Virus record (IMG/VR): IMGVR_UViG_2563366897_000003
Reading direction: 5' to 3' (one strand)
Length of the DNA stretch: 33,104 nucleotides
Origin: a virus
Taxonomy: Duplodnaviria; Heunggongvirae; Uroviricota; Caudoviricetes
Numbering within the stretch: position 1 is the stretch's first letter; each line of letters begins with the position of its first letter. Both the position numbers and the translations under genes were made by a program. Under the pieces are notes generated by a model, which saw only the letters and a list, made by a program, of their open reading frames with translations, had not been told where the DNA came from and made no database searches. Of this stretch, positions 2,140-12,180 are shown piece after piece.

Positions 2140-3216
2140 GTGAGTATGGCTAACGCTTGGCTCAGATTATGGCATGACATGCCAAATGACCCTAAGTGGC
2201 GAACAATTGCCAGGGTGTCAGGGCAGCCAATTGCAACAGTGATGGCAGTGTATATCCACCTCCTGGTGAGCGCGTCACGAAATGTCACGCGAGGTCACAT
2301 TGATGTCACGACAGAAGATTTAGCAAGTGCGCTCGACGTGACAGAAGAGGTAATTGATTCAATTTTGCAGACGATGCAGGGGCGGGTACTTGATGGTGAT
2401 TTAATCACTGGATGGGAAAAACGCCAGGTGCTTAAAGAGGACAACGGCAATATTTCGCAAACCGCAAAATCTCCGGCAGAGCGCAAGAGGGCGCAGCGAG
2501 AGAGGGAAAGAAAGCGGGAACAAAATGGCGATTGTCACGGCGCGTCACGAAATGTCACGCACATGTCACGACGAGTCACGACAGATAAAGATACAGATAA
2601 AGATACAGATCAAGAAGATCAAAACACTATGGTCCATGGCGTAAAAAACGCCACGAACCAGGCAGGGGATGTTCAGACCGTCAATCCTGGTCAGCCAGCA
2701 GGCACGACACCGGAAGCCGATTCAGCGTATGCGCTGAAAGCCGATTCGGGCGCTGTGCAGCAGGTGATGACCCCAAGGCCGGAACAATCACACCAACTGC
2801 AGCAGCCTGAAGCCGATTTCGCCATTCAGCGGGAAGCCGATCGGGTAGTCCCGGAAAACACCGGGCTGTCTGTGGGACGAGTGGATTATCCGGATGTGTT
2901 CGAACAGGTCTGGCGGGAGTACCCGTTGCGTGCCGGAGCAAACCCGAAGAAATCCGCTTTCAGTGCATGGAAGGCCAGATTACGCGAGGGGGTGCCACCA
3001 GAGGCCATGCTGGATGGCGTGAGGCGTTACGCAAGATACTTGGCGGCTACCGGGAAAACGGGAACGGAATTTGTTCAGCGAGCGACGACGTTTTTTGGAC
3101 CGGACCGGAATTTTGAGAACCCCTGGTTGCTCCCGGTAAGCGGCACGAACAACCAGCGTTGTGTGAATCATATTTCTGAACCGGATAACGAAATTCCGCC
3201 GGGCTTCAGGGGGTAA
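2140..3216 (+). CDS. replication initiator / phage replisome organizer with embedded origin iterons
   Basis: 358 aa; N-terminus (WLRLWHDMPNDPKWRTIA) resembles the phage replisome-organizer N-terminal domain; conserved C-terminal block WREYPLRAGANPKKSAFSAWKARL...FFGP; two iteron clusters lie inside the coding sequence, as in lambda O. Confidence 0.7.
   Translation: MSMANAWLRLWHDMPNDPKWRTIARVSGQPIATVMAVYIHLLVSASRNVTRGHIDVTTEDLASALDVTEEVIDSILQTMQGRVLDGDLITGWEKRQVLKEDNGNISQTAKSPAERKRAQRERERKREQNGDCHGASRNVTHMSRRVTTDKDTDKDTDQEDQNTMVHGVKNATNQAGDVQTVNPGQPAGTTPEADSAYALKADSGAVQQVMTPRPEQSHQLQQPEADFAIQREADRVVPENTGLSVGRVDYPDVFEQVWREYPLRAGANPKKSAFSAWKARLREGVPPEAMLDGVRRYARYLAATGKTGTEFVQRATTFFGPDRNFENPWLLPVSGTNNQRCVNHISEPDNEIPPGFRG
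2274..2620. repeat. putative replication origin: GTCACG iteron arrays plus a tandem 12-bp repeat
   Basis: GTCAC(G/A) at 2274, 2284, 2294, 2305 and again at 2534, 2544, 2554, 2565, 2575 (10-11 bp spacing, about one helical turn), an inverted copy at 2337-2342, then tandem ACAGATAAAGAT x2 (2581-2604). Confidence 0.6.
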
Positions 3217-3256
3217 GTGTTAATTTCTGGTCATGAGGTAATTTTCAGGAGGGCTT

Positions 3257-3679
3257 GTGGCAAAAGTTTTTACACAAGAAGAGCGGGAAAAAATTAAAGG
3301 ACAGGTTGTTGAACTCGTACGCCAGAGTGGGCGCGAGACGTTACGACAACTGGAAACTAAAACTGGGGCAACAAGATATCTGATGAGCGTTCTGGCCAGA
3401 GAGCTGGTTGCCAGTGGCGATGTATACAATTCTGGCTACGGGTTATTCCCGTCTGAACAGGCTCGTAAAGACTGGCAAAATGCCCGCAAAAAATTATCGA
3501 GGGCAAAGCTGAAGAAACCGGTTGTGGTTGATCCGGACCTTATCTGGTCGTTACCTGACGGAGAAATACGTCGCTACGACAGTCGCCTAAACATAATCTG
3601 TCGCGAGTGCCGGAAGAGTGAAGCTATGCAGCGTGTACTGGCTTTCTATCAGGGTAATTTTCAGGAGGCGGTACTGTGA
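3257..3679 (+). CDS. hypothetical protein (140 aa)
   Basis: ORF track; GTG start preceded by CAGGAGG; follows the replication gene. No Walker motif, so not an obvious DnaC/P-type helicase loader. Confidence 0.5.
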   Translation: MAKVFTQEEREKIKGQVVELVRQSGRETLRQLETKTGATRYLMSVLARELVASGDVYNSGYGLFPSEQARKDWQNARKKLSRAKLKKPVVVDPDLIWSLPDGEIRRYDSRLNIICRECRKSEAMQRVLAFYQGNFQEAVL

Positions 3680-4093
3680 GTGAAATTAGCTATCAGGCTT
3701 CAATTACCGCTGGCATTCGCATCAAAGGAGAGGAGCATGGAAATAAAACCAGAGGATGAGTTAAGCAATATCGTTTTATTTCCGGTAAAAGAGGATGACC
3801 CTCGTAATCAGGTTAATTTTCTTTATGAGCCATCGGAAAGACCATATTGTCATCACGCCTCTGTCCGGGTTGACGAAAAAGAGCGTCAGGTCCGCTGTAA
3901 AATCTGCGGTGCAGTTGTGGAGCCATTTGACTGGATGCTCTCTGTGGCGAAAAGAGAAACCAGACTGGCAGATGATGTAAGGCTCTTGCGTCAGGAGGAG
4001 CGGGAAAGGCGAAAAAATATAGAAAAGCTAATTCAGATTGAGCGTAACGCGAAAGCGCGGATACGCAGGGCGACAAAATCCAGAACTGAATAA
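3680..4093 (+). CDS. hypothetical protein with putative zinc-binding motif (CHH...CxxC)
   Basis: ORF track 3680..4093 (GTG directly after the upstream stop); an alternative ATG at 3737 has a stronger AAAGGAGAGG SD and gives 118 aa; contains CHHASVRVDEKERQVRCKICG and a basic coiled C-terminus. Confidence 0.5.
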   Translation: MKLAIRLQLPLAFASKERSMEIKPEDELSNIVLFPVKEDDPRNQVNFLYEPSERPYCHHASVRVDEKERQVRCKICGAVVEPFDWMLSVAKRETRLADDVRLLRQEERERRKNIEKLIQIERNAKARIRRATKSRTE

Positions 4094-4186
4094 TTAAATT
4101 TAGCTCTGTTAAAAATTTAATCCTTAACCGGAGGGATTTCTGCACCCTCAGAACATCAGGAGGCCGCCCGAAAGGGCGGTAGTTAA

Positions 4187-4369
4187 ATGCGAAAGTTTAA
4201 AATAATTATTGAAACGGGAATAGCCGGTGGAGATTTCGAGGATGAATTCGAAGTGGATGATGATGCGACGCCTGATGAAATACATGACGAAGCAAAAGAT
4301 ATTTTCTTTAACTACTGCAATTACTCATATCACGAAATAAAAGACGAAGAGGAAGAACAAAATGGCTGA
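4187..4369 (+). CDS. small highly acidic protein (60 aa)
   Basis: ORF track; very Asp/Glu-rich (GDFEDEFEVDDDATPDEIHDE...KDEEEEQNG); AGGAGG lies upstream, separated from the ATG by a GAAA-tetraloop hairpin. Confidence 0.45.
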   Translation: MRKFKIIIETGIAGGDFEDEFEVDDDATPDEIHDEAKDIFFNYCNYSYHEIKDEEEEQNG

Positions 4370-4537: not shown

Positions 4538-4860
4538 AGCGAGGTTAATTATCAGGAAGGGCATGAAACGGCGGGGCAAGCAAAAACAGTGGCATGGCGA
4601 TATCGCTACGTGAAAAAAAAGGCGTTACGGACTTTCAGGGGAAGTAGTGGTCTGGTGACTGGAAATATGTACCGAAAAAAGAGGATTGTAACGACAGGCC
4701 GAACTATGAAATTCAGGCCTTATTCACTGCCCCGCCAGTCCCGGTTACATCAGAAGAACTGGTTAAAGCTGTGCACTTTTATGAACAACTAAAACGCGAA
4801 AATCCACCAGCATCCGGAAACCTGATTACAGATTCCCAGATAAGGCAATGAGCTACCTGG
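4535..4860 (+). pseudogene. probable frameshifted gene remnant
   Basis: Track ORF 4535..4792 turns into low-complexity basic sequence after an A8 homopolymer (4613-4620); a second frame (4648-4851) encodes protein-like sequence (...NYEIQALFTAPPVPVTSEELVKAVHFYEQLKRENPPASGNLITDSQIRQ) with no start codon. Confidence 0.25.
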
Positions 4861-5201: not shown

Positions 5202-5460
5202 ATACAGCGAACGCCATTGGTTTAGTTGGATATTTACTGTGCCGGACAAAAACGGTTTGCGGGGAAATCTTAGTTAAGTAGAATGACTGCGGGTGCTTGA
5301 GGCTATCTGTCTCAGGCATGAACACCAAAAGGCAGATAGAGAAAAGCCCCAGTTAACATTACGCGTCCTGCAAGACGCTTAACATTAATCTGAGGCTCAA
5401 TCTATGAACGGCAAATCTAGGTTAGCCTCTTACGTGCCGAAAGGCAAGGAGAAGCAGGCT

Positions 5461-5616
5461 ATGAAGCAGCAAAAGGCGATGTTAATCGCCCTGATCGTCA
5501 TCTGTTTAACCGTCATAGTGACGGCACTGGTAACGAGGAAAGACCTCTGCGAGGTACGAATCCGAACCGGCCAGACGGAGGTCGCTGTCTTCACAGCTTA
5601 CGAACCTGAGGAGTAA
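5461..5616 (+). CDS. hok: Hok/Gef family type I toxin (HokD/RelF-like)
   Basis: MKQQKAMLIALIVICLTVIVTALVTRKDLCEVRIRTGQTEVAVFTAYEPEE is a clear Hok/Gef-family sequence; AAGGAG-like SD upstream; the track ORF starts earlier in frame at 5404 (possible leader/mok-like extension). Confidence 0.8.
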   Translation: MKQQKAMLIALIVICLTVIVTALVTRKDLCEVRIRTGQTEVAVFTAYEPEE

Positions 5617-7116: not shown

Positions 7117-7479
7117 ATGACTGAACGCATAGAATTTGTTTTGCCTTACCCGCCGACGGTGAATACCTACTGGCGACGTCATGGCAATACGTATTTCATC
7201 TCGGAGGCCGGAAAGCGTTATCGCCGTGATGTGGCGCTAATTGTTCGCCAGCAGCGGCTGAAATTAAACCTGTCCGGAAGGCTGGCGATAAAGGTGATTG
7301 CAGAGCCACCGGATAAGCGTCGTCGCGACCTGGACAATATCCTGAAAGCACCGCTGGATGCGCTGACGCATGCGGGAGTGTTAATGGACGATGAGCAGTT
7401 TGATGAAATCAATATCGTTCGTGGTCAGCCAGTATCTGGTGGACGTCTGGGGGTGAAGATTTACCCCATAATGCATTAA
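7117..7479 (+). CDS. rusA: RusA-family Holliday junction resolvase
   Basis: 120 aa; LPYPPTVNTYWRR...RRRDLDNILKAPLDAL...GGRL matches RusA motifs, including the catalytic acidic cluster. Confidence 0.85.
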   Translation: MTERIEFVLPYPPTVNTYWRRHGNTYFISEAGKRYRRDVALIVRQQRLKLNLSGRLAIKVIAEPPDKRRRDLDNILKAPLDALTHAGVLMDDEQFDEINIVRGQPVSGGRLGVKIYPIMH

Positions 7480-7493
7480 GAGCAGGTCAAAAA

Positions 7494-8315
7494 ATGAAAC
7501 TGGAAGATTTACCGAAATACTACTCCCCAAAATCCCCTGGCCTGACCGATGCATCGGCCTCAACGTCAAAAGATGCGCTGAGTATCACTGATGTGATGGC
7601 CGCGCAGGGCATGACACAGAATCGGGCTGAGATGGGTTTTTCTGCGTTCCTGGGGAAAATGGGCATCAGTATGAATGACAGGGCGCGGGCAACAGAATTA
7701 CTGGCAGATTATGCACTCAGTCGGTGCGATCGTGTGGCGGCGTTGAGAAAACTTCCGGCAGAAATAAAACCGGTAGTGATGCGCATTATGGCTTCGTACG
7801 CTTTTGAGGATTATGCCCGCAGCGCAGCGAGTAAAAAGCAGTGCCCTTGTTGCTATGGGGAAAAATTTATTGAAAGCGTAGTTTTTACAAACAAGGTCCA
7901 GTATCCGGATGGTAAGCCACCAGTGTGGGCAAAGTGCACAAAAGGCGTGTATCCGTCTTACTGGGAAGAATGGAAAAAAGTCAGGGAGGTGGTAAAAGTT
8001 GCCTGTCCGGAGTGTGGCGGAAAGGGTGAGGTTTCCACCGCCTGTAAGGATTGCCGTGGGCGTGGTGTCGCCATTCATTGTGAAGAGTCGGTAAAACGTG
8101 GTATGCCTGTTATCAGAGACTGCCAGCGTTGTGGTGGTCGTGGCTATGAAAGACTACCATCAACGGAGGCATTTAATGCTATATGCGAGGTGACAAACCA
8201 GATAACACGCGCGTCATGGGAAAAAACAGTTAAGAAATTCTATGATGCGCTGGTGACCCGGTTTGATATTGAAGAAGCATGGGCTGAGCGGCAGTTAAAA
8301 AAGGTAACTAGGTAA
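7494..8315 (+). CDS. Q: late-gene antitermination protein Q (zinc-finger type)
   Basis: 273 aa with three CxxC pairs (CPECGGKGE, CKDCRGRG, CQRCGGRG); immediately upstream of a promoter/terminator pair, the tRNAs and the lysis genes. Confidence 0.75.
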   Translation: MKLEDLPKYYSPKSPGLTDASASTSKDALSITDVMAAQGMTQNRAEMGFSAFLGKMGISMNDRARATELLADYALSRCDRVAALRKLPAEIKPVVMRIMASYAFEDYARSAASKKQCPCCYGEKFIESVVFTNKVQYPDGKPPVWAKCTKGVYPSYWEEWKKVREVVKVACPECGGKGEVSTACKDCRGRGVAIHCEESVKRGMPVIRDCQRCGGRGYERLPSTEAFNAICEVTNQITRASWEKTVKKFYDALVTRFDIEEAWAERQLKKVTR

Positions 8316-8320
8316 CAAGG

Positions 8321-8348
8321 TTGATTTTTCCGGAATCTGTGGTAAATT
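8321..8348 (+). promoter_or_regulatory. candidate late promoter pR' (and qut region)
   Basis: TTGATT (8321-8326), 16-bp spacer, TAAATT (8343-8348), directly downstream of Q and upstream of a terminator. Confidence 0.35.
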
Positions 8349-8397
8349 CGTCATAACAATGGGCTTTTTATGCCTGACGTTAGAAGAGTTTCTACAA

Positions 8398-8420
8398 CCC
8401 GCCGCCGAGCGGGTTTTTTA
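8398..8420 (+). terminator. tR'-like intrinsic terminator
   Basis: CCCGC-loop-GCGGG hairpin followed by TTTTTTA, about 65 nt after the candidate pR' start; classic substrate for Q antitermination. Confidence 0.55.
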
Positions 8421-8458
8421 TTGCGGAATTAATTACGGACCGTTATTATTCTGCTCCC

Positions 8459-8534
8459 GGCCCTTTAGCTCAGTGGTGAGAGCGAGCGACTCATAATCGC
8501 CAGGTCGCTGGTTCAAATCCAGCAAGAGCCACCA
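8459..8534 (+). tRNA. tRNA with CAU anticodon (ileX/ileZ-type tRNA-Ile2, or tRNA-Met)
   Basis: Cloverleaf readable by eye: GGCCCTT acceptor, GCTCAGTGG D-arm, CTCATAA anticodon loop (CAT), GGTTCAAATCC T-arm, encoded CCA at 8532-8534. Confidence 0.85.
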
Positions 8535-8634
8535 TCACAAACCGCCATTAGCTTATCAGGAAGAGCAGACGACACGATAACAGGGTTGTTGGTGCGGGGG
8601 CGGGTCCCCGATGGCGGTCCATTATCGGTATTCA

Positions 8635-8708
8635 GCGTTGTTAGCTCAGCCGGACAGAGCAATTGCCTTCTAAGCAATCGGTCACTGGTTCGAATCCAGT
8701 ACAGCGCG
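8635..8708 (+). tRNA. tRNA-Arg (anticodon UCU, argN/argO-like)
   Basis: GCGTTGT acceptor pairs with ACAGCGC at the 3' end; CTTCTAA anticodon loop (TCT); GGTTCGAATCC T-arm; no encoded CCA. Confidence 0.85.
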
Positions 8709-9566
8709 CTATATTCATTCTTCCAGATTCCTTCCGGCAGAGCCTTATACTGAAATATACCTGGCTCAGGATATTGTTGAAAATATTTTATGTTTGTCAA
8801 AAATAAAAGTTCTGTTAAGTATTGATTGAGTGTTTGTTATACGGTCTAATGGTTTTTTCAGCATTAAATATTTATCATTCATATGGTGTGGGTAGAGTGA
8901 ATATTGATGAGGCGTCGGGGTGTTTCATCCTTAGGCAGCGTATTGATATAGTCAATGCAGGACGAGCAAAGGCCTTCAGCCGTTTGACAGTTTTGTTCTG
9001 TACTCCTGATCGTCTTTCGGGAAGAGACGTTATTATTCTGAATAGTGATGCTATACAGAGGGTTTGCGATGAGTTCATGGTTGCTAATTCAGAATTATTT
9101 GCTCTTGTTCAGGAGTACAACAGAATAGCCAGTACCTGTGGTATGGATGAACTTCGGATTACTCATCTGGGGTAGATACATATCTGGATTATCACTTGTT
9201 ACGGTAAAAAGTGATTGCTTACTGTTTTTGTGAGTGGCATTGCAGCAGCCGGATAATGTCAGTGCTGGCTGACGGTGTGCTGGTGGCGGGTGTGGTGGTT
9301 GTTGCTTTCCCGTTGCTGAAAAAGAAAACGCCAGACTGTTAGCCGGGTATCAGTTAGCGGGAGAAATTTTTAAATACTTCACAATTCAGGCGGTTGACTG
9401 TTGTCTGGTTTGCGGGGAGTTTGTTAAAAGAAACTGGCATGGTGAATCCCCCTGTGCGGAGGGGCAATCAGCGAGTAGGTATATGGGATAATCGCGGATT
9501 CAGGTGCTGGTACTGAATTCACCGGGAGGCACCCGGCACCATGCAATGGCACATAGCGCCACTCTC

Positions 9567-9602
9567 CAGCCCCTCTCCGGAGGGGCTGTTTATATTGATT
9601 TT
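9567..9602 (+). terminator. intrinsic terminator inside the cargo island
   Basis: CAGCCCCTC-TCCG-GAGGGGCTG (9-bp stem) followed by TTTATATTGATTTT. Confidence 0.5.
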
Positions 9603-9622
9603 GTCAGATGTGAGTAAACTCC

Positions 9623-9958
9623 TTATGGACTTTGTTGTTTTAGTCCATAAGGACATATTTGCAGAGTGCAACGGTTATTAAAGCATTCATTCAATACGTT
9701 ATCTGTATTTGTAGGACATTCCTGGCTGTTTTTGATTAAATTCCAGAATGTTTTATTGAATGGTGCTACGTTGTAAATGGTTACAGGTAGCACTTTGTTA
9801 TTGAGCATGATACCTGTGTGAGTCAGTGTAAATATACTTTCAGGAGGTAAGAAAGCATCCGATTGATACCAGATTATTAATTTTATTTTACTCCATATGA
9901 CTGAAAAAGATATTCCGCATGATGGCTGGATAACTGTATCAATCACAATCCACTTCAT
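9623..9958 (-). CDS. hypothetical protein (111 aa), antisense to the late operon
   Basis: ORF track; AAGGAA SD 6-7 nt upstream of the minus-strand ATG; AT-rich codon usage; an 11-bp perfect inverted repeat (9621-9652) overlaps its stop. Confidence 0.4.
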
Positions 9959-10203
9959 TTAGTTTCCTTGTTTATGTCTTGCTGGTGATGTTCTGAAAAG
10001 TATAAATGATATTTTTGAATGTAAACCATAGAGCAGAATTATTTTTCTGATGTTGTTTATTGTTTATTTAAATGCAGGGTGGTTTATATCTCGTCTTGTA
10101 GTTTATCCATGCATATCTGCTTGATGATGAGGTTTTTATTTAAGGTATGGTTTTGTGTTTTTTCTGTATTACATGTCAGGTATTTTAAAGAATTATTTTT
10201 CAG

Positions 10204-12180
10204 ATGGTGGAAAGAACCATGGCATTTAAACACTATGATGTTGTCAGGGCGGCATCGCCGTCAGACCTTGCGAAACGACTGACACAAAAACTGAAGGAGG
10301 GGTGGCAGCCATTTGGCAGTCCGGTGGCCATCACGCCTTATACCCTGATGCAGGCCATTGCGGCGGAAGGTGATGTCACCACACCTGTGGTGGTGAAGCC
10401 GTCGGATGGAGAAGGCGCAGTTATCAGCACCACCAGCAACCCGGAGTATTACTTTGTTGTTGCCCTGGCCGGGCAGTCAAACGGTATGGCGTATGGTGAA
10501 GGGCTTCCGCTGCCGGAGACATATGACCGTCCGGACCCGCGTATTAAACAGCTGGCGCGTCGCAGCACTGTCACGCCGGGTGGTGCGTCCTGTAACTACA
10601 ATGACATTATTCCTGCGGACCACTGCCTGCATGATGTTCAGGATTTGAGTAAGTTTTCACACCCGAAAGCCAGCGCAGCTCAGTATGGATGCGTGGGGCA
10701 GGGATTACATATCGCGAAGAAATTGTTGCCGTTTATTCCGGCGAATGCCGGTATTCTTCTGGTTCCGTGCTGCCGTGGTGGTTCTGCATTTTTGGCGGGC
10801 GATGAAGGTACCTTCAGCGAATCCACCGGCGCAAGCGAGACCTCGGCACGCTGGGGTGTTGATAAGCCACTGTACAAGGACCTGCTTACCCGTACTCAGG
10901 CCGCACTGAAGGCCAACCCTAAAAATATTCTGCTTGCAGTGGTCTGGATGCAGGGCGAGTTTGATTTGAAACAGGGTGCATACGCCACTCAGCCGGGGCT
11001 GTTTGATTCCATGGTGGAAAAATATCGTTCTGACCTGTCGGAATTCGGAGGTCAGTGTCTCGGGGGCTCTCCGTCATCGGTTCCCTGGATTTGTGGCGAC
11101 ACGACCTACTACTGGAAGCAGACTTATTCTTCGCAATACGATGCGGTGTATGGTGCATACAAGACGAAATCCGCAAAAAAAATCTTCTTTGTGCCGTTTA
11201 TGACGGATGAAAACGGGCGAAATGTGGGTACCAACGAGCCGTCAGAAGATCCGGATGTTGCGGATATTGGGTATTACGGAGCCGGTGGTCGAACGGACGC
11301 CAAAACCTGGACGACGGCCGACCGTAAAACGCATTTTGGATCATGGGCACGTCGTGGGATTATTTCCGACCGTCTGGCAACGGCGATTCTTGTGCATGCC
11401 GGGAGAAACGCTGAATTCATTACCGGAAAACAGCCTGATACGGTGAAGCCCACCGGACCTTCCGGTGAAGGTACGGAGAGAGAGCCGGAAGCCCCGGTCA
11501 GTAACCGAACCCTGATGAGTCTGCTGGCGTCCGGCGAAGACCTGGCATCACAGGGCTGGCGCTATTATCACAAACCGGCGAGCGGAGACAATGTTAACAA
11601 AAACATTGCTGAAGCGGTGGTCAGTGATGCGGGGGCTACGGGAGGTAAGGCCCTGCAACTGAATAAACCGGAAAACCACATCTGGTTTCTGGAGCATGAT
11701 GCAGCCGGACAGGGAGTGGAGTTACTGAAGAAGGGGGGACGTGTGAGCGTACGGTTTAAGTTGCCGGGTTCACTGGTGCCGAATCAGTTTGCCCTGGGCA
11801 TTTACTGGCAGTTGTCGTCCCTGCCGGAGGGAGTGACGCTGGCAGAGGAAGGCAACGACATGCTGATGTCCTTCTTTCTGCAGACGGATGCGACGAACCT
11901 GAACGCGATGCACCACAAGAAGCCGAATGCGAAGCTGGAAACGTTCGGGGTCTTTGATAACGGATGGCACACACTGGCTTTTGAGTTTGCCGGAAACAAC
12001 AGCATTCAGGTGACGCCGGTACTGGATGAGAAACGGGGGACGCCGTTCACACTGGTGAAATCTCCGGCATCAGGGGCGGCGGACAAACTGCAACTGACAG
12101 GCATATCAAAGGCGGCGACATATACGCTGCTGATTGACAGTGTGAAGGTGGAAGTGAACAACGCGGACATCGCGGCATGA
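10204..12180 (+). CDS. nanS: NanS-p-type prophage sialate O-acetylesterase (DUF1737 N-terminus plus SGNH/SASA esterase domain)
   Basis: 658 aa; N-terminus AFKHYDVVRAASPSDLAKRLTQKLKEGWQPFGSPVAIT is the DUF1737-type leader of EHEC prophage NanS-p/L0105-like proteins; sits between Q/tRNAs and the holin as in Stx-phage-like prophages. True start may be the ATG at 10219. Confidence 0.8.
   Translation: MVERTMAFKHYDVVRAASPSDLAKRLTQKLKEGWQPFGSPVAITPYTLMQAIAAEGDVTTPVVVKPSDGEGAVISTTSNPEYYFVVALAGQSNGMAYGEGLPLPETYDRPDPRIKQLARRSTVTPGGASCNYNDIIPADHCLHDVQDLSKFSHPKASAAQYGCVGQGLHIAKKLLPFIPANAGILLVPCCRGGSAFLAGDEGTFSESTGASETSARWGVDKPLYKDLLTRTQAALKANPKNILLAVVWMQGEFDLKQGAYATQPGLFDSMVEKYRSDLSEFGGQCLGGSPSSVPWICGDTTYYWKQTYSSQYDAVYGAYKTKSAKKIFFVPFMTDENGRNVGTNEPSEDPDVADIGYYGAGGRTDAKTWTTADRKTHFGSWARRGIISDRLATAILVHAGRNAEFITGKQPDTVKPTGPSGEGTEREPEAPVSNRTLMSLLASGEDLASQGWRYYHKPASGDNVNKNIAEAVVSDAGATGGKALQLNKPENHIWFLEHDAAGQGVELLKKGGRVSVRFKLPGSLVPNQFALGIYWQLSSLPEGVTLAEEGNDMLMSFFLQTDATNLNAMHHKKPNAKLETFGVFDNGWHTLAFEFAGNNSIQVTPVLDEKRGTPFTLVKSPASGAADKLQLTGISKAATYTLLIDSVKVEVNNADIAA

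Follow-up and report, generated by a model that had tools for sequence, protein, structure and literature searches.

Based on the comparisons presented here, we propose, with a probability that we put at about 85%, that the flagged interval 8715-10203 of the viral record IMGVR_UViG_2563366897_000003 (33,104 nt, the whole of which is referred to below as the window) is a cargo ('moron') region in which two exchangeable slots flank a conserved gene for the small RNA (sRNA) STnc100, and in which the second slot, slot B, carries the lysogenic conversion gene iraL. The DNA is that of a lambdoid Escherichia coli prophage, and the interval lies between the Q/tRNA block and the sialate O-acetylesterase gene nanS-p. 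E. coli prophages commonly carry this interval, and most of it is known already, iraL, STnc100 and DUF3927 having been described; the residue of novelty is modest and consists of an unannotated, apparently selected open reading frame (ORF) of 92 amino acids, referred to as ORF92, and of the two-slot view of the Q-to-nanS hotspot. An earlier reading of the sequence alone (the sequence-only reading) had seen here a single 1.5-kb AT-rich island in the place of the Shiga toxin genes (stx), and had named well-known homologues of the ORFs as a finding that would refute it. A single island is not supported, since only ~8720-9378 replaces stx2AB, STnc100 belongs to the backbone and iraL sits in a second slot; and such homologues do exist: the main gene encodes a protein 99% identical to the characterised IraL, the mini-ORF belongs to the Pfam family DUF3927, and all three ORFs of the interval fall in existing PHROG families.

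Two cargo slots around a conserved sRNA gene

The likeness to the late region of Stx phages, which the sequence-only reading had recognised, is borne out by the comparison with the Stx2 phage 933W. Both genomes have the same backbone order (Q, tRNA block, STnc100, nanS-p), with a tRNA block that is 86% identical and a nanS-p gene of ~70-91% nucleotide identity (91% at the N-terminus). The order in 933W is tRNAs (2121-2372), stx2A/B (2463-3703), STnc100 (3778-3983, plus strand), the 53-nt anti-sRNA AsxR (3985-4037, minus strand) and nanS-p (from 4190); in the window it is tRNAs, ORF92 and a truncated DUF3927 gene, STnc100 (9408-9597), iraL on the minus strand and nanS-p. BLAST pairs window 8419-8719 with 933W 2081-2380 (the tRNA block), window 9379-9545 with 933W 3749-3926 (the STnc100 region), and the window from 10218 onward with nanS-p. 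From these borders it follows that the stx-equivalent interval, slot A, extends only over ~8720-9378 and that the antisense gene lies in a second interval (Table 1). Slot A has no similarity to stx2AB in this comparison with 933W, where the toxin genes lie between the same flanks; in place of stx the window has ORF92 and a remnant of a tciB gene. Both genomes have a minus-strand regulator between the sRNA gene and nanS-p, but the window has the protein gene iraL where 933W has AsxR. The window Q is also of another type, 273 aa long and with a weak, sub-threshold match to a DnaJ-type zinc finger.

The AT-richness noted by the sequence-only reading is confirmed for the interval as a whole, which has a G+C content (GC) of 0.393 vs 0.518 for the entire window (sd 0.052), but it is bipartite. 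GC is 0.386 in 8720-9242 and 0.323 in 9603-10203, the lowest-GC 600-bp stretch of the window, whereas the middle is backbone-like (0.55 in 9243-9342 and 0.515 in 9370-9602). The comparison of the Q-to-nanS interval across prophages, which the same reading had suggested, does reveal the exchange of cargo, but in two slots split by STnc100. The stx-less phage PPwrbA_EH2201 is essentially 'empty', with tRNAs, ~58 bp, STnc100, ~220 bp and nanS-p in succession. Phage mEp460 has window 7400-9545 in common and then carries TolA-C-like genes in place of iraL; in phage vB_EcoS-640R1 (640R1; locus L003), iraL is present and ORF92 absent. As mEp460 and 640R1 each have one module only, the modules assort independently. 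Among 5426 complete E. coli genomes, the complete interval is found in 863, the iraL module in 1429 and slot A, counted at a coverage of at least 80%, in 1183; iraL is at least 90% identical wherever it is present (1446 genomes). Many chromosomes of extraintestinal pathogenic E. coli, that of MCJCHV-1 for example, match the 1489 bp of the flagged interval at 100% identity, and window 1-25000 is 99.9% identical to strain JNEC-KY173. Such comparisons support the view that the two AT-rich segments are exchangeable cargo. The presence of iraL in the hotspot that holds stx and AsxR in phages of enterohaemorrhagic E. coli (EHEC) offers a frame for comparing what different pathotypes carry in the two slots, be it a toxin or an RpoS stabiliser.

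The antisense gene encodes the anti-adaptor IraL

The antisense 111-aa ORF is, as judged from its sequence, IraL. Its product matches the NCBIfam model NF007393 (IraM) with 162.4 bits (cutoff 121) over residues 1-110 of 111, is 63% identical to K-12 IraM over 107 aa, and matches the crystallised IraM chain of PDB entry 8twd with E = 2e-32; the CFT073 protein, identical at 110 of the 111 positions, is itself labelled IraM by PGAP. Window 8417-10376 aligns with the potB-prophage locus of CFT073 in a single high-scoring segment pair (96.7%), and the order of that locus in NC_004431.1 is Q, IS200C, three tRNAs, DUF3927, iraL (minus strand) and a DUF1737 stub. In both genomes iraL is a minus-strand gene with STnc100 on one side and the DUF1737/nanS-p gene on the other, and the upstream DUF3927 protein WP_000562553.1 is common to CFT073 and MCJCHV-1. 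The two loci differ in several respects: CFT073 has IS200C just after tR', where the window has no such element; its middle tRNA-Arg (argN, 45.5 bits in Rfam) is intact, whereas argN is degenerate in the window; and its nanS-p is a stub, whereas the esterase of the window is intact. Between the iraL genes themselves there is one amino-acid change, A65V, and there are three substitutions around the transcription start site (TSS) and 5' untranslated region (UTR).

In CFT073, iraL lies within the 'potB genomic island'; it is transcribed from a sigma70-type promoter with a TSS determined by rapid amplification of cDNA ends (5' RACE), and a fragment from −100 to +33 of this promoter is enough for complementation; IraL binds RssB (two-hybrid, pull-down) and makes RpoS more abundant and longer-lived in log-phase cells that are not under stress (immunoblot, half-life assays; Hryckowian et al. 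2014, mBio, PMC4045071). The gene is enriched among uropathogenic E. coli, prostatitis and Shigella isolates (PMC4045071). The published 5'-RACE end ACATCACCAGCAAGGCATAAACAAGGAAACCA is found in the window with 2 mismatches, placing the TSS at 9991 on the minus strand, and the sigma70 -35 (TTTACA) and -10 (TATACT) hexamers are the same in the window and in CFT073. This conservation supports a promoter belonging to iraL itself, which would act independently of Q, in agreement with what the sequence-only reading had proposed for the antisense gene; Q-independent expression is already published for CFT073 iraL. Like the 99%-identical CFT073 protein, the IraL of this prophage would be expected to bind RssB and to stabilise RpoS, and the gene to be expressed in this strain. 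Variants of the -35 element occur elsewhere: a point mutation is reported for the iraL2 copy of JJ1886 (PMC4045071), and the iraL of phage 640R1 has TTTATA, not TTTACA.

The inverted repeat that the sequence-only reading had placed at 9621-9652 with 11 bp is present, but it is 12 bp long and overlaps the iraL stop codon. Its fold on the minus strand has a z-score of -6, and it is probably the 3' hairpin of the iraL mRNA; a role as a 3' stabiliser or weak terminator is plausible, the latter being the more presumptive. The STnc100 terminator was considered as a bidirectional terminator for iraL and ruled out, its minus strand being without a U-tract.

The K-12 relative IraM (YcgW), which is induced by Mg2+ starvation through PhoPQ, belongs to the same family as IraL, and both genes lie beside or within prophage DNA. 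Nucleotide homology between iraL and iraM (71.5%) is nevertheless confined to the coding region, and the promoter and regulation of iraL thus differ from those of K-12 iraM. The window IraL also has a 4-aa C-terminal extension (QQSP), and IraL differs from IraM in being active in unstressed log phase and in making other contacts with RssB (PMC4045071). No STnc100 gene was found when sought near K-12 iraM.

The STnc100 gene and its terminator

Between the two slots lies a gene of the STnc100 family that the sequence-only reading had overlooked. The intrinsic terminator which that reading had drawn at 9567-9602 is indeed a hairpin (9567-9588) with a T-rich tail, but it belongs to this sRNA gene as its 3' end, coinciding with the 3' end of the alignment to the Rfam model, which is covered over its whole length (1-206, E = 2.8e-30). 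The element recurs in 933W, PPwrbA, 640R1, mEp460, CFT073 and JLK-2012, and the window copy stands in the typical prophage position, after Q and the cargo and before the esterase, as it does in 933W, PPwrbA, CFT073, JLK-2012 and mEp460. STnc100 is thus a piece of conserved backbone between two cargo slots. In EDL933, 11 copies are transcribed according to RNA sequencing and one has been confirmed by Northern blot. In 933W the element has the same position, 75 nt after stx2B (PMC12370729), and the copy so placed overlaps EcOnc27/sRNA103, an sRNA that binds Hfq. A relation of STnc100 to the PasD sRNAs has been described, together with a gene order in which the sRNA is followed by sialate esterase and then holin (Zhu, Shabalina and Storz 2026 preprint). 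The window gene shares the position typical of STnc100/PasD sRNAs, after Q and immediately before the sialate esterase gene; it differs in that an internal hairpin of the model is missing, and its score is 132 bits vs 208 for the 933W copy. By analogy with other copies of the family, it may be an expressed Hfq-binding sRNA. A TTGTCT-N17-(TG)TTAAAA-like block at 9401-9430, with TTTGTTAAAAG at 9420-9430, is a candidate promoter for it.

Some further observations concern this gene. Immediately ahead of the sRNA core, the block TTTGTTAAAA…GCATGG (window 9420-9445; 933W 3784-3813) is invariant in 8 STnc100 loci and could be the extended -10 and TSS region of the sRNA. Variants at +90 and +103 after stx2B are reported to be predictive of haemolytic uraemic syndrome (PMC12711010). 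In Stx2 phages these +90/+103 variants fall within the TTTGTTAAAA…GCATGG block. Phage 640R1 has two tandem STnc100 copies (4165-4358 and 4634-4822) upstream of iraL. A minus-strand partial 'hypothetical protein' called by PGAP at 9424-9552 (MCJCHV-1, CFT073) lies wholly inside the STnc100 gene and is almost certainly spurious. The annotation of the interval can be improved, since PGAP labels IraL as 'IraM', places this spurious ORF within STnc100 and leaves ORF92 out.

Slot A holds the remains of a larger cassette

The three ORFs listed by the sequence-only reading (8822-9175, 9256-9342 and 9623-9958) all exist, but for the first, 117 aa as drawn, the likeliest start is GTG 8897, which gives the 92 aa of ORF92, and the second corresponds to the 3' portion of a DUF3927 gene. 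In the PGAP annotation this latter gene has 43 aa and begins at GTG 9211; its match to PF13064 is far above the gathering threshold (95.6 vs 25 bits), and its family phrog_1470 is labelled 'TciB-like'. The C-terminal 28/28 residues are identical to those of the 54-aa TciB of phage JLK-2012, and ~19 nt present upstream in JLK-2012 tciB are absent from the window, taking away the first transmembrane segment; we thus read the mini-ORF gene as a 5'-degraded tciB. Full-length TciB (~50-54 aa) has two hydrophobic segments, an architecture that the window gene does not have. Literature searches returned only unrelated items for 'TciB' and, for 'DUF3927', a single passing mention in one paper; the label 'inhibition of cell division or resistance to colicin' in PHROG seems to have been given by association with the TerB-like TciA.

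The tciA-tciB cassette of JLK-2012 (TerB, PF05099, followed by DUF3927) is found in this slot as well, with the tRNAs on one side and STnc100 on the other. The window differs from it in being without tciA, in having the 5' part of tciB deleted or replaced, and in having ORF92 upstream instead. Fuller cassettes are found in other enterobacterial prophages. Loci L010/L011 (4142-6038) have the order Q … methyltransferase, AraC-like, ORF92, TerB, DUF3927, holin, the AraC-like protein being YdeO/GadX-like with a match below the cutoff, and locus L008 (164-1686) has AraC-like, ORF92, small ORF, STnc100. From these loci it follows that slot A of the window has lost the AraC-like and TerB genes, and slot A is thus a decayed remnant of an AraC-like / ORF92 / TciA (TerB) / TciB (DUF3927) cassette, with ORF92 and a truncated TciB left. 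In these prophages ORF92 always comes directly after the AraC-like gene, and this adjacency hints at a functional pair. Any function of ORF92 or of the TciB remnant is presumptive.

For ORF92, a profile search of 1.84 billion representatives returned 21 clusters only, and among sequenced phages it is carried by mEp460 alone. Nothing was found above threshold in Pfam or NCBIfam, the sole Pfam match being RHIM (E = 0.09), and a profile search of the PDB gave nothing significant (best GapR/UPF0335, E = 0.08). The Foldseek matches of its model (prefoldin, EmrA, designed helical bundles) were set aside as uninformative about function.

Weighing the alternatives

A single AT-rich island of novel genes, 1.5 kb long, acquired horizontally and filling the stx slot as a unit, would account for the low GC of 8715-10203 relative to the window, for the finding of the full 1489 bp intact in 863 genomes and for flanks arranged as in Stx phages. 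We nevertheless consider it very improbable: the middle 230-350 bp are backbone of normal GC, common to 933W and to nearly cargo-free stx-less phages, the AT-rich parts occur apart both in the genome counts given above and in mEp460 and 640R1, the stx2AB genes of 933W replace 8720-9378 only, and the genes are not novel. About equally improbable is that the interval is inert, with iraL and the other ORFs as silent relics, the sRNA not made and the host unaffected. Signs of decay there certainly are, since slot A is degraded and no longer has its AraC-like and TerB genes, only a truncated TciB is left, the argN tRNA has degenerated, and nanS-p is frameshifted in MCJCHV-1 and a stub in CFT073. 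Yet iraL is intact and conserved at 90% identity or more across the 1446 genomes, its promoter hexamers match those of the functional CFT073 promoter, for which the −100 to +33 fragment suffices in complementation, STnc100 copies are expressed in EHEC, and ORF92 bears the mark of purifying selection.

Several points weigh against parts of the two-slot reading. There is no convincing promoter for STnc100 (the promoter scan found no sigma70 promoter for it), only the conserved but weak block at 9401-9430, and its RNA could alternatively be processed from longer transcripts. The iraL 5' UTR of the window differs from that of CFT073 at two positions, to which position -1 is to be added; the U-tract after the 12-bp hairpin is poor, and the end of the iraL transcript is not fixed by sequence. 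ORF92 has a weak Shine-Dalgarno (SD) sequence in the window and no PGAP annotation, and Foldseek against the PDB finds for it only generic helical hairpins, none at E<=0.001. The weak SD and the GTG start, the missing annotation in RefSeq genomes, the want of a Pfam or NCBIfam hit and the single carrier among sequenced phages would also suit a different view of 8822/8897-9175, as a conserved stretch that does not code, such as a regulatory region or a 5' leader, and stays open by chance. We regard this as unlikely, though by no means negligible. The frame is kept open in homologues of only 32-64% amino-acid identity, and comparison with the 57%-identical homologue of L008 gives, from codon 28 on, a ratio of nonsynonymous to synonymous substitutions (dN/dS) of 0.27 with an excess of third-position changes (codon-position differences 24/23/42), vs 0.64 and 11/10/12 for the first 27 codons of the 117-aa ORF. 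Moreover, independently called proteins of 91-95 aa share the start residue, several of these homologues beginning at profile position 26, one homologue has an AGGAG SD ahead of the equivalent GTG, the AlphaFold (AF2) model, a helical hairpin that ends in a short beta-turn at the tip, is confident (predicted local distance difference test score, pLDDT, 89), and a PHROG family exists. ORF92 is thus probably a real gene.

A proposed regulatory scheme

Within the two-slot reading, the following course of events is the best supported, and we regard it as likely for the lysogen. There, transcripts from pR' would end at tR', and promoter activity in slot A, if any, would end at the STnc100 terminator, which would halt all transcription not modified by Q; STnc100 would accumulate as an sRNA. 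Convergently, iraL would be transcribed from its own sigma70 promoter (TSS 9991), and IraL would bind the adaptor RssB and block the delivery of RpoS to ClpXP, with RpoS raised in exponential growth and, as the outcome, lysogenic conversion of the host stress response. Upon induction, Q-modified polymerase would read through the sRNA terminator and, antisense across iraL, on to nanS-p and the lysis genes; we infer that this antisense read-through would depress iraL. A wider proposal, in which STnc100 is a fixed divider making two lysogenic-conversion slots, slot B prefers antisense host regulators expressed in the lysogen (iraL here, AsxR in 933W), Q read-through switches these off at induction, and ORF92, as a true small protein, works with the YdeO/GadX-like AraC regulators found beside it in the fuller cassettes, is speculative and, taken as a whole, quite unlikely. 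If true, the silencing of slot B by Q read-through would couple the host RpoS level to the state of the prophage.

Flanking genes and further observations

The setting described by the sequence-only reading, with Q, a terminator, two tRNAs and NanS-p, is recovered by PF03589, the terminator scan, ARAGORN and the esterase domains (Table 1). Between the two tRNAs lies a third, degenerate one, the argN remnant (8541-8621), in which the acceptor, D and T arms are retained and for which neither ARAGORN nor Rfam at E<=1 makes a call.

Table 1. Features of the Q-to-nanS-p region (window coordinates)
Feature	Position	Strand	Evidence
Q late-gene antiterminator, left anchor	7494-8315	+	PF03589 Antiterm, E = 3e-54; PGAP 'antitermination protein'
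Candidate pR', TTGATT-16-TAAATT	8321-8348	+	Read from the sequence; under the 9/12 threshold of the promoter scan
tR' terminator after Q	8396-8415 plus T-run (element to 8421)	+	Terminator scan
tRNA with CAU anticodon, ileZ type	8459-8534	+	ARAGORN; Rfam tRNA, 68 bits; PGAP name tRNA-Ile
Degenerate argN tRNA remnant, anticodon arm replaced	8541-8621	+	Alignment to CFT073 and 933W argN
tRNA-Arg(UCU), argO type	8635-8709	+	ARAGORN; Rfam, 68 bits
Slot A, true stx-equivalent interval	~8720-9378		No homology to 933W, which has stx2AB between the same flanks
ORF92 (phrog_2873), probable gene, 92 aa, start most likely GTG 8897	8897-9175	+	phrog_2873, E = 6.6e-70
DUF3927/TciB-like small membrane-protein gene, 5'-degraded, one hydrophobic segment left	9211-9342	+	PF13064, 95.6 bits; phrog_1470
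STnc100-family sRNA gene (PasD/EcOnc27 relatives)	9408-9597	+	Rfam RF02076, 132.4 bits (gathering score 47)
Rho-independent terminator of STnc100	9567-9602	+	9-bp G+C stem 9567-9588 and TTTATATTGATTTT tail
Slot B, iraL interval	~9603-10217	iraL on −	AsxR at the corresponding place in 933W
Perfect 12-bp inverted repeat over last codons and stop of iraL	9620-9631 / 9642-9653	−	Repeat search
iraL, RssB anti-adaptor (IraM/IraL/RssC family), 111 aa	9623-9958	−	110/111 identity to CFT073 IraL
iraL 5' UTR with AAGGAA SD, promoter and TSS	9959-10025	−	TSS 9991; -10 TATACT 9999-10004; -35 TTTACA 10020-10025
NanS-p-type sialate O-acetylesterase, right anchor	10219-12180	+	DUF1737, SASA and DUF6645 domains; start 10219 as in PGAP

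Two sub-threshold Rfam matches, Trp_leader at 8316-8422 and Plastid-ycf2 on a tRNA, are under their gathering scores and were put down to chance. The nanS-p gene was compared between the window (10219-12180) and loci L001 (10505-12465) and L006 (24062-24247): it is whole in the window, has a frameshift in MCJCHV-1 (4 gap positions) and survives only as the DUF1737 stub in CFT073 and in phage 640R1, which points to a repeated decay of the esterase gene in iraL prophages. Among the features under the match of the genome most similar to window 1-25000, NZ_AP045169.1, is the transposase of the IS21-like element ISEc10, which places an insertion sequence within that part of the window. Further upstream, ahead of the DUF968-RusA-Q genes, the sok antitoxin RNA of a hok/sok module is found at 5291-5466 (RF01794, 112 bits), and MCJCHV-1 has an annotated hokD at the corresponding place.

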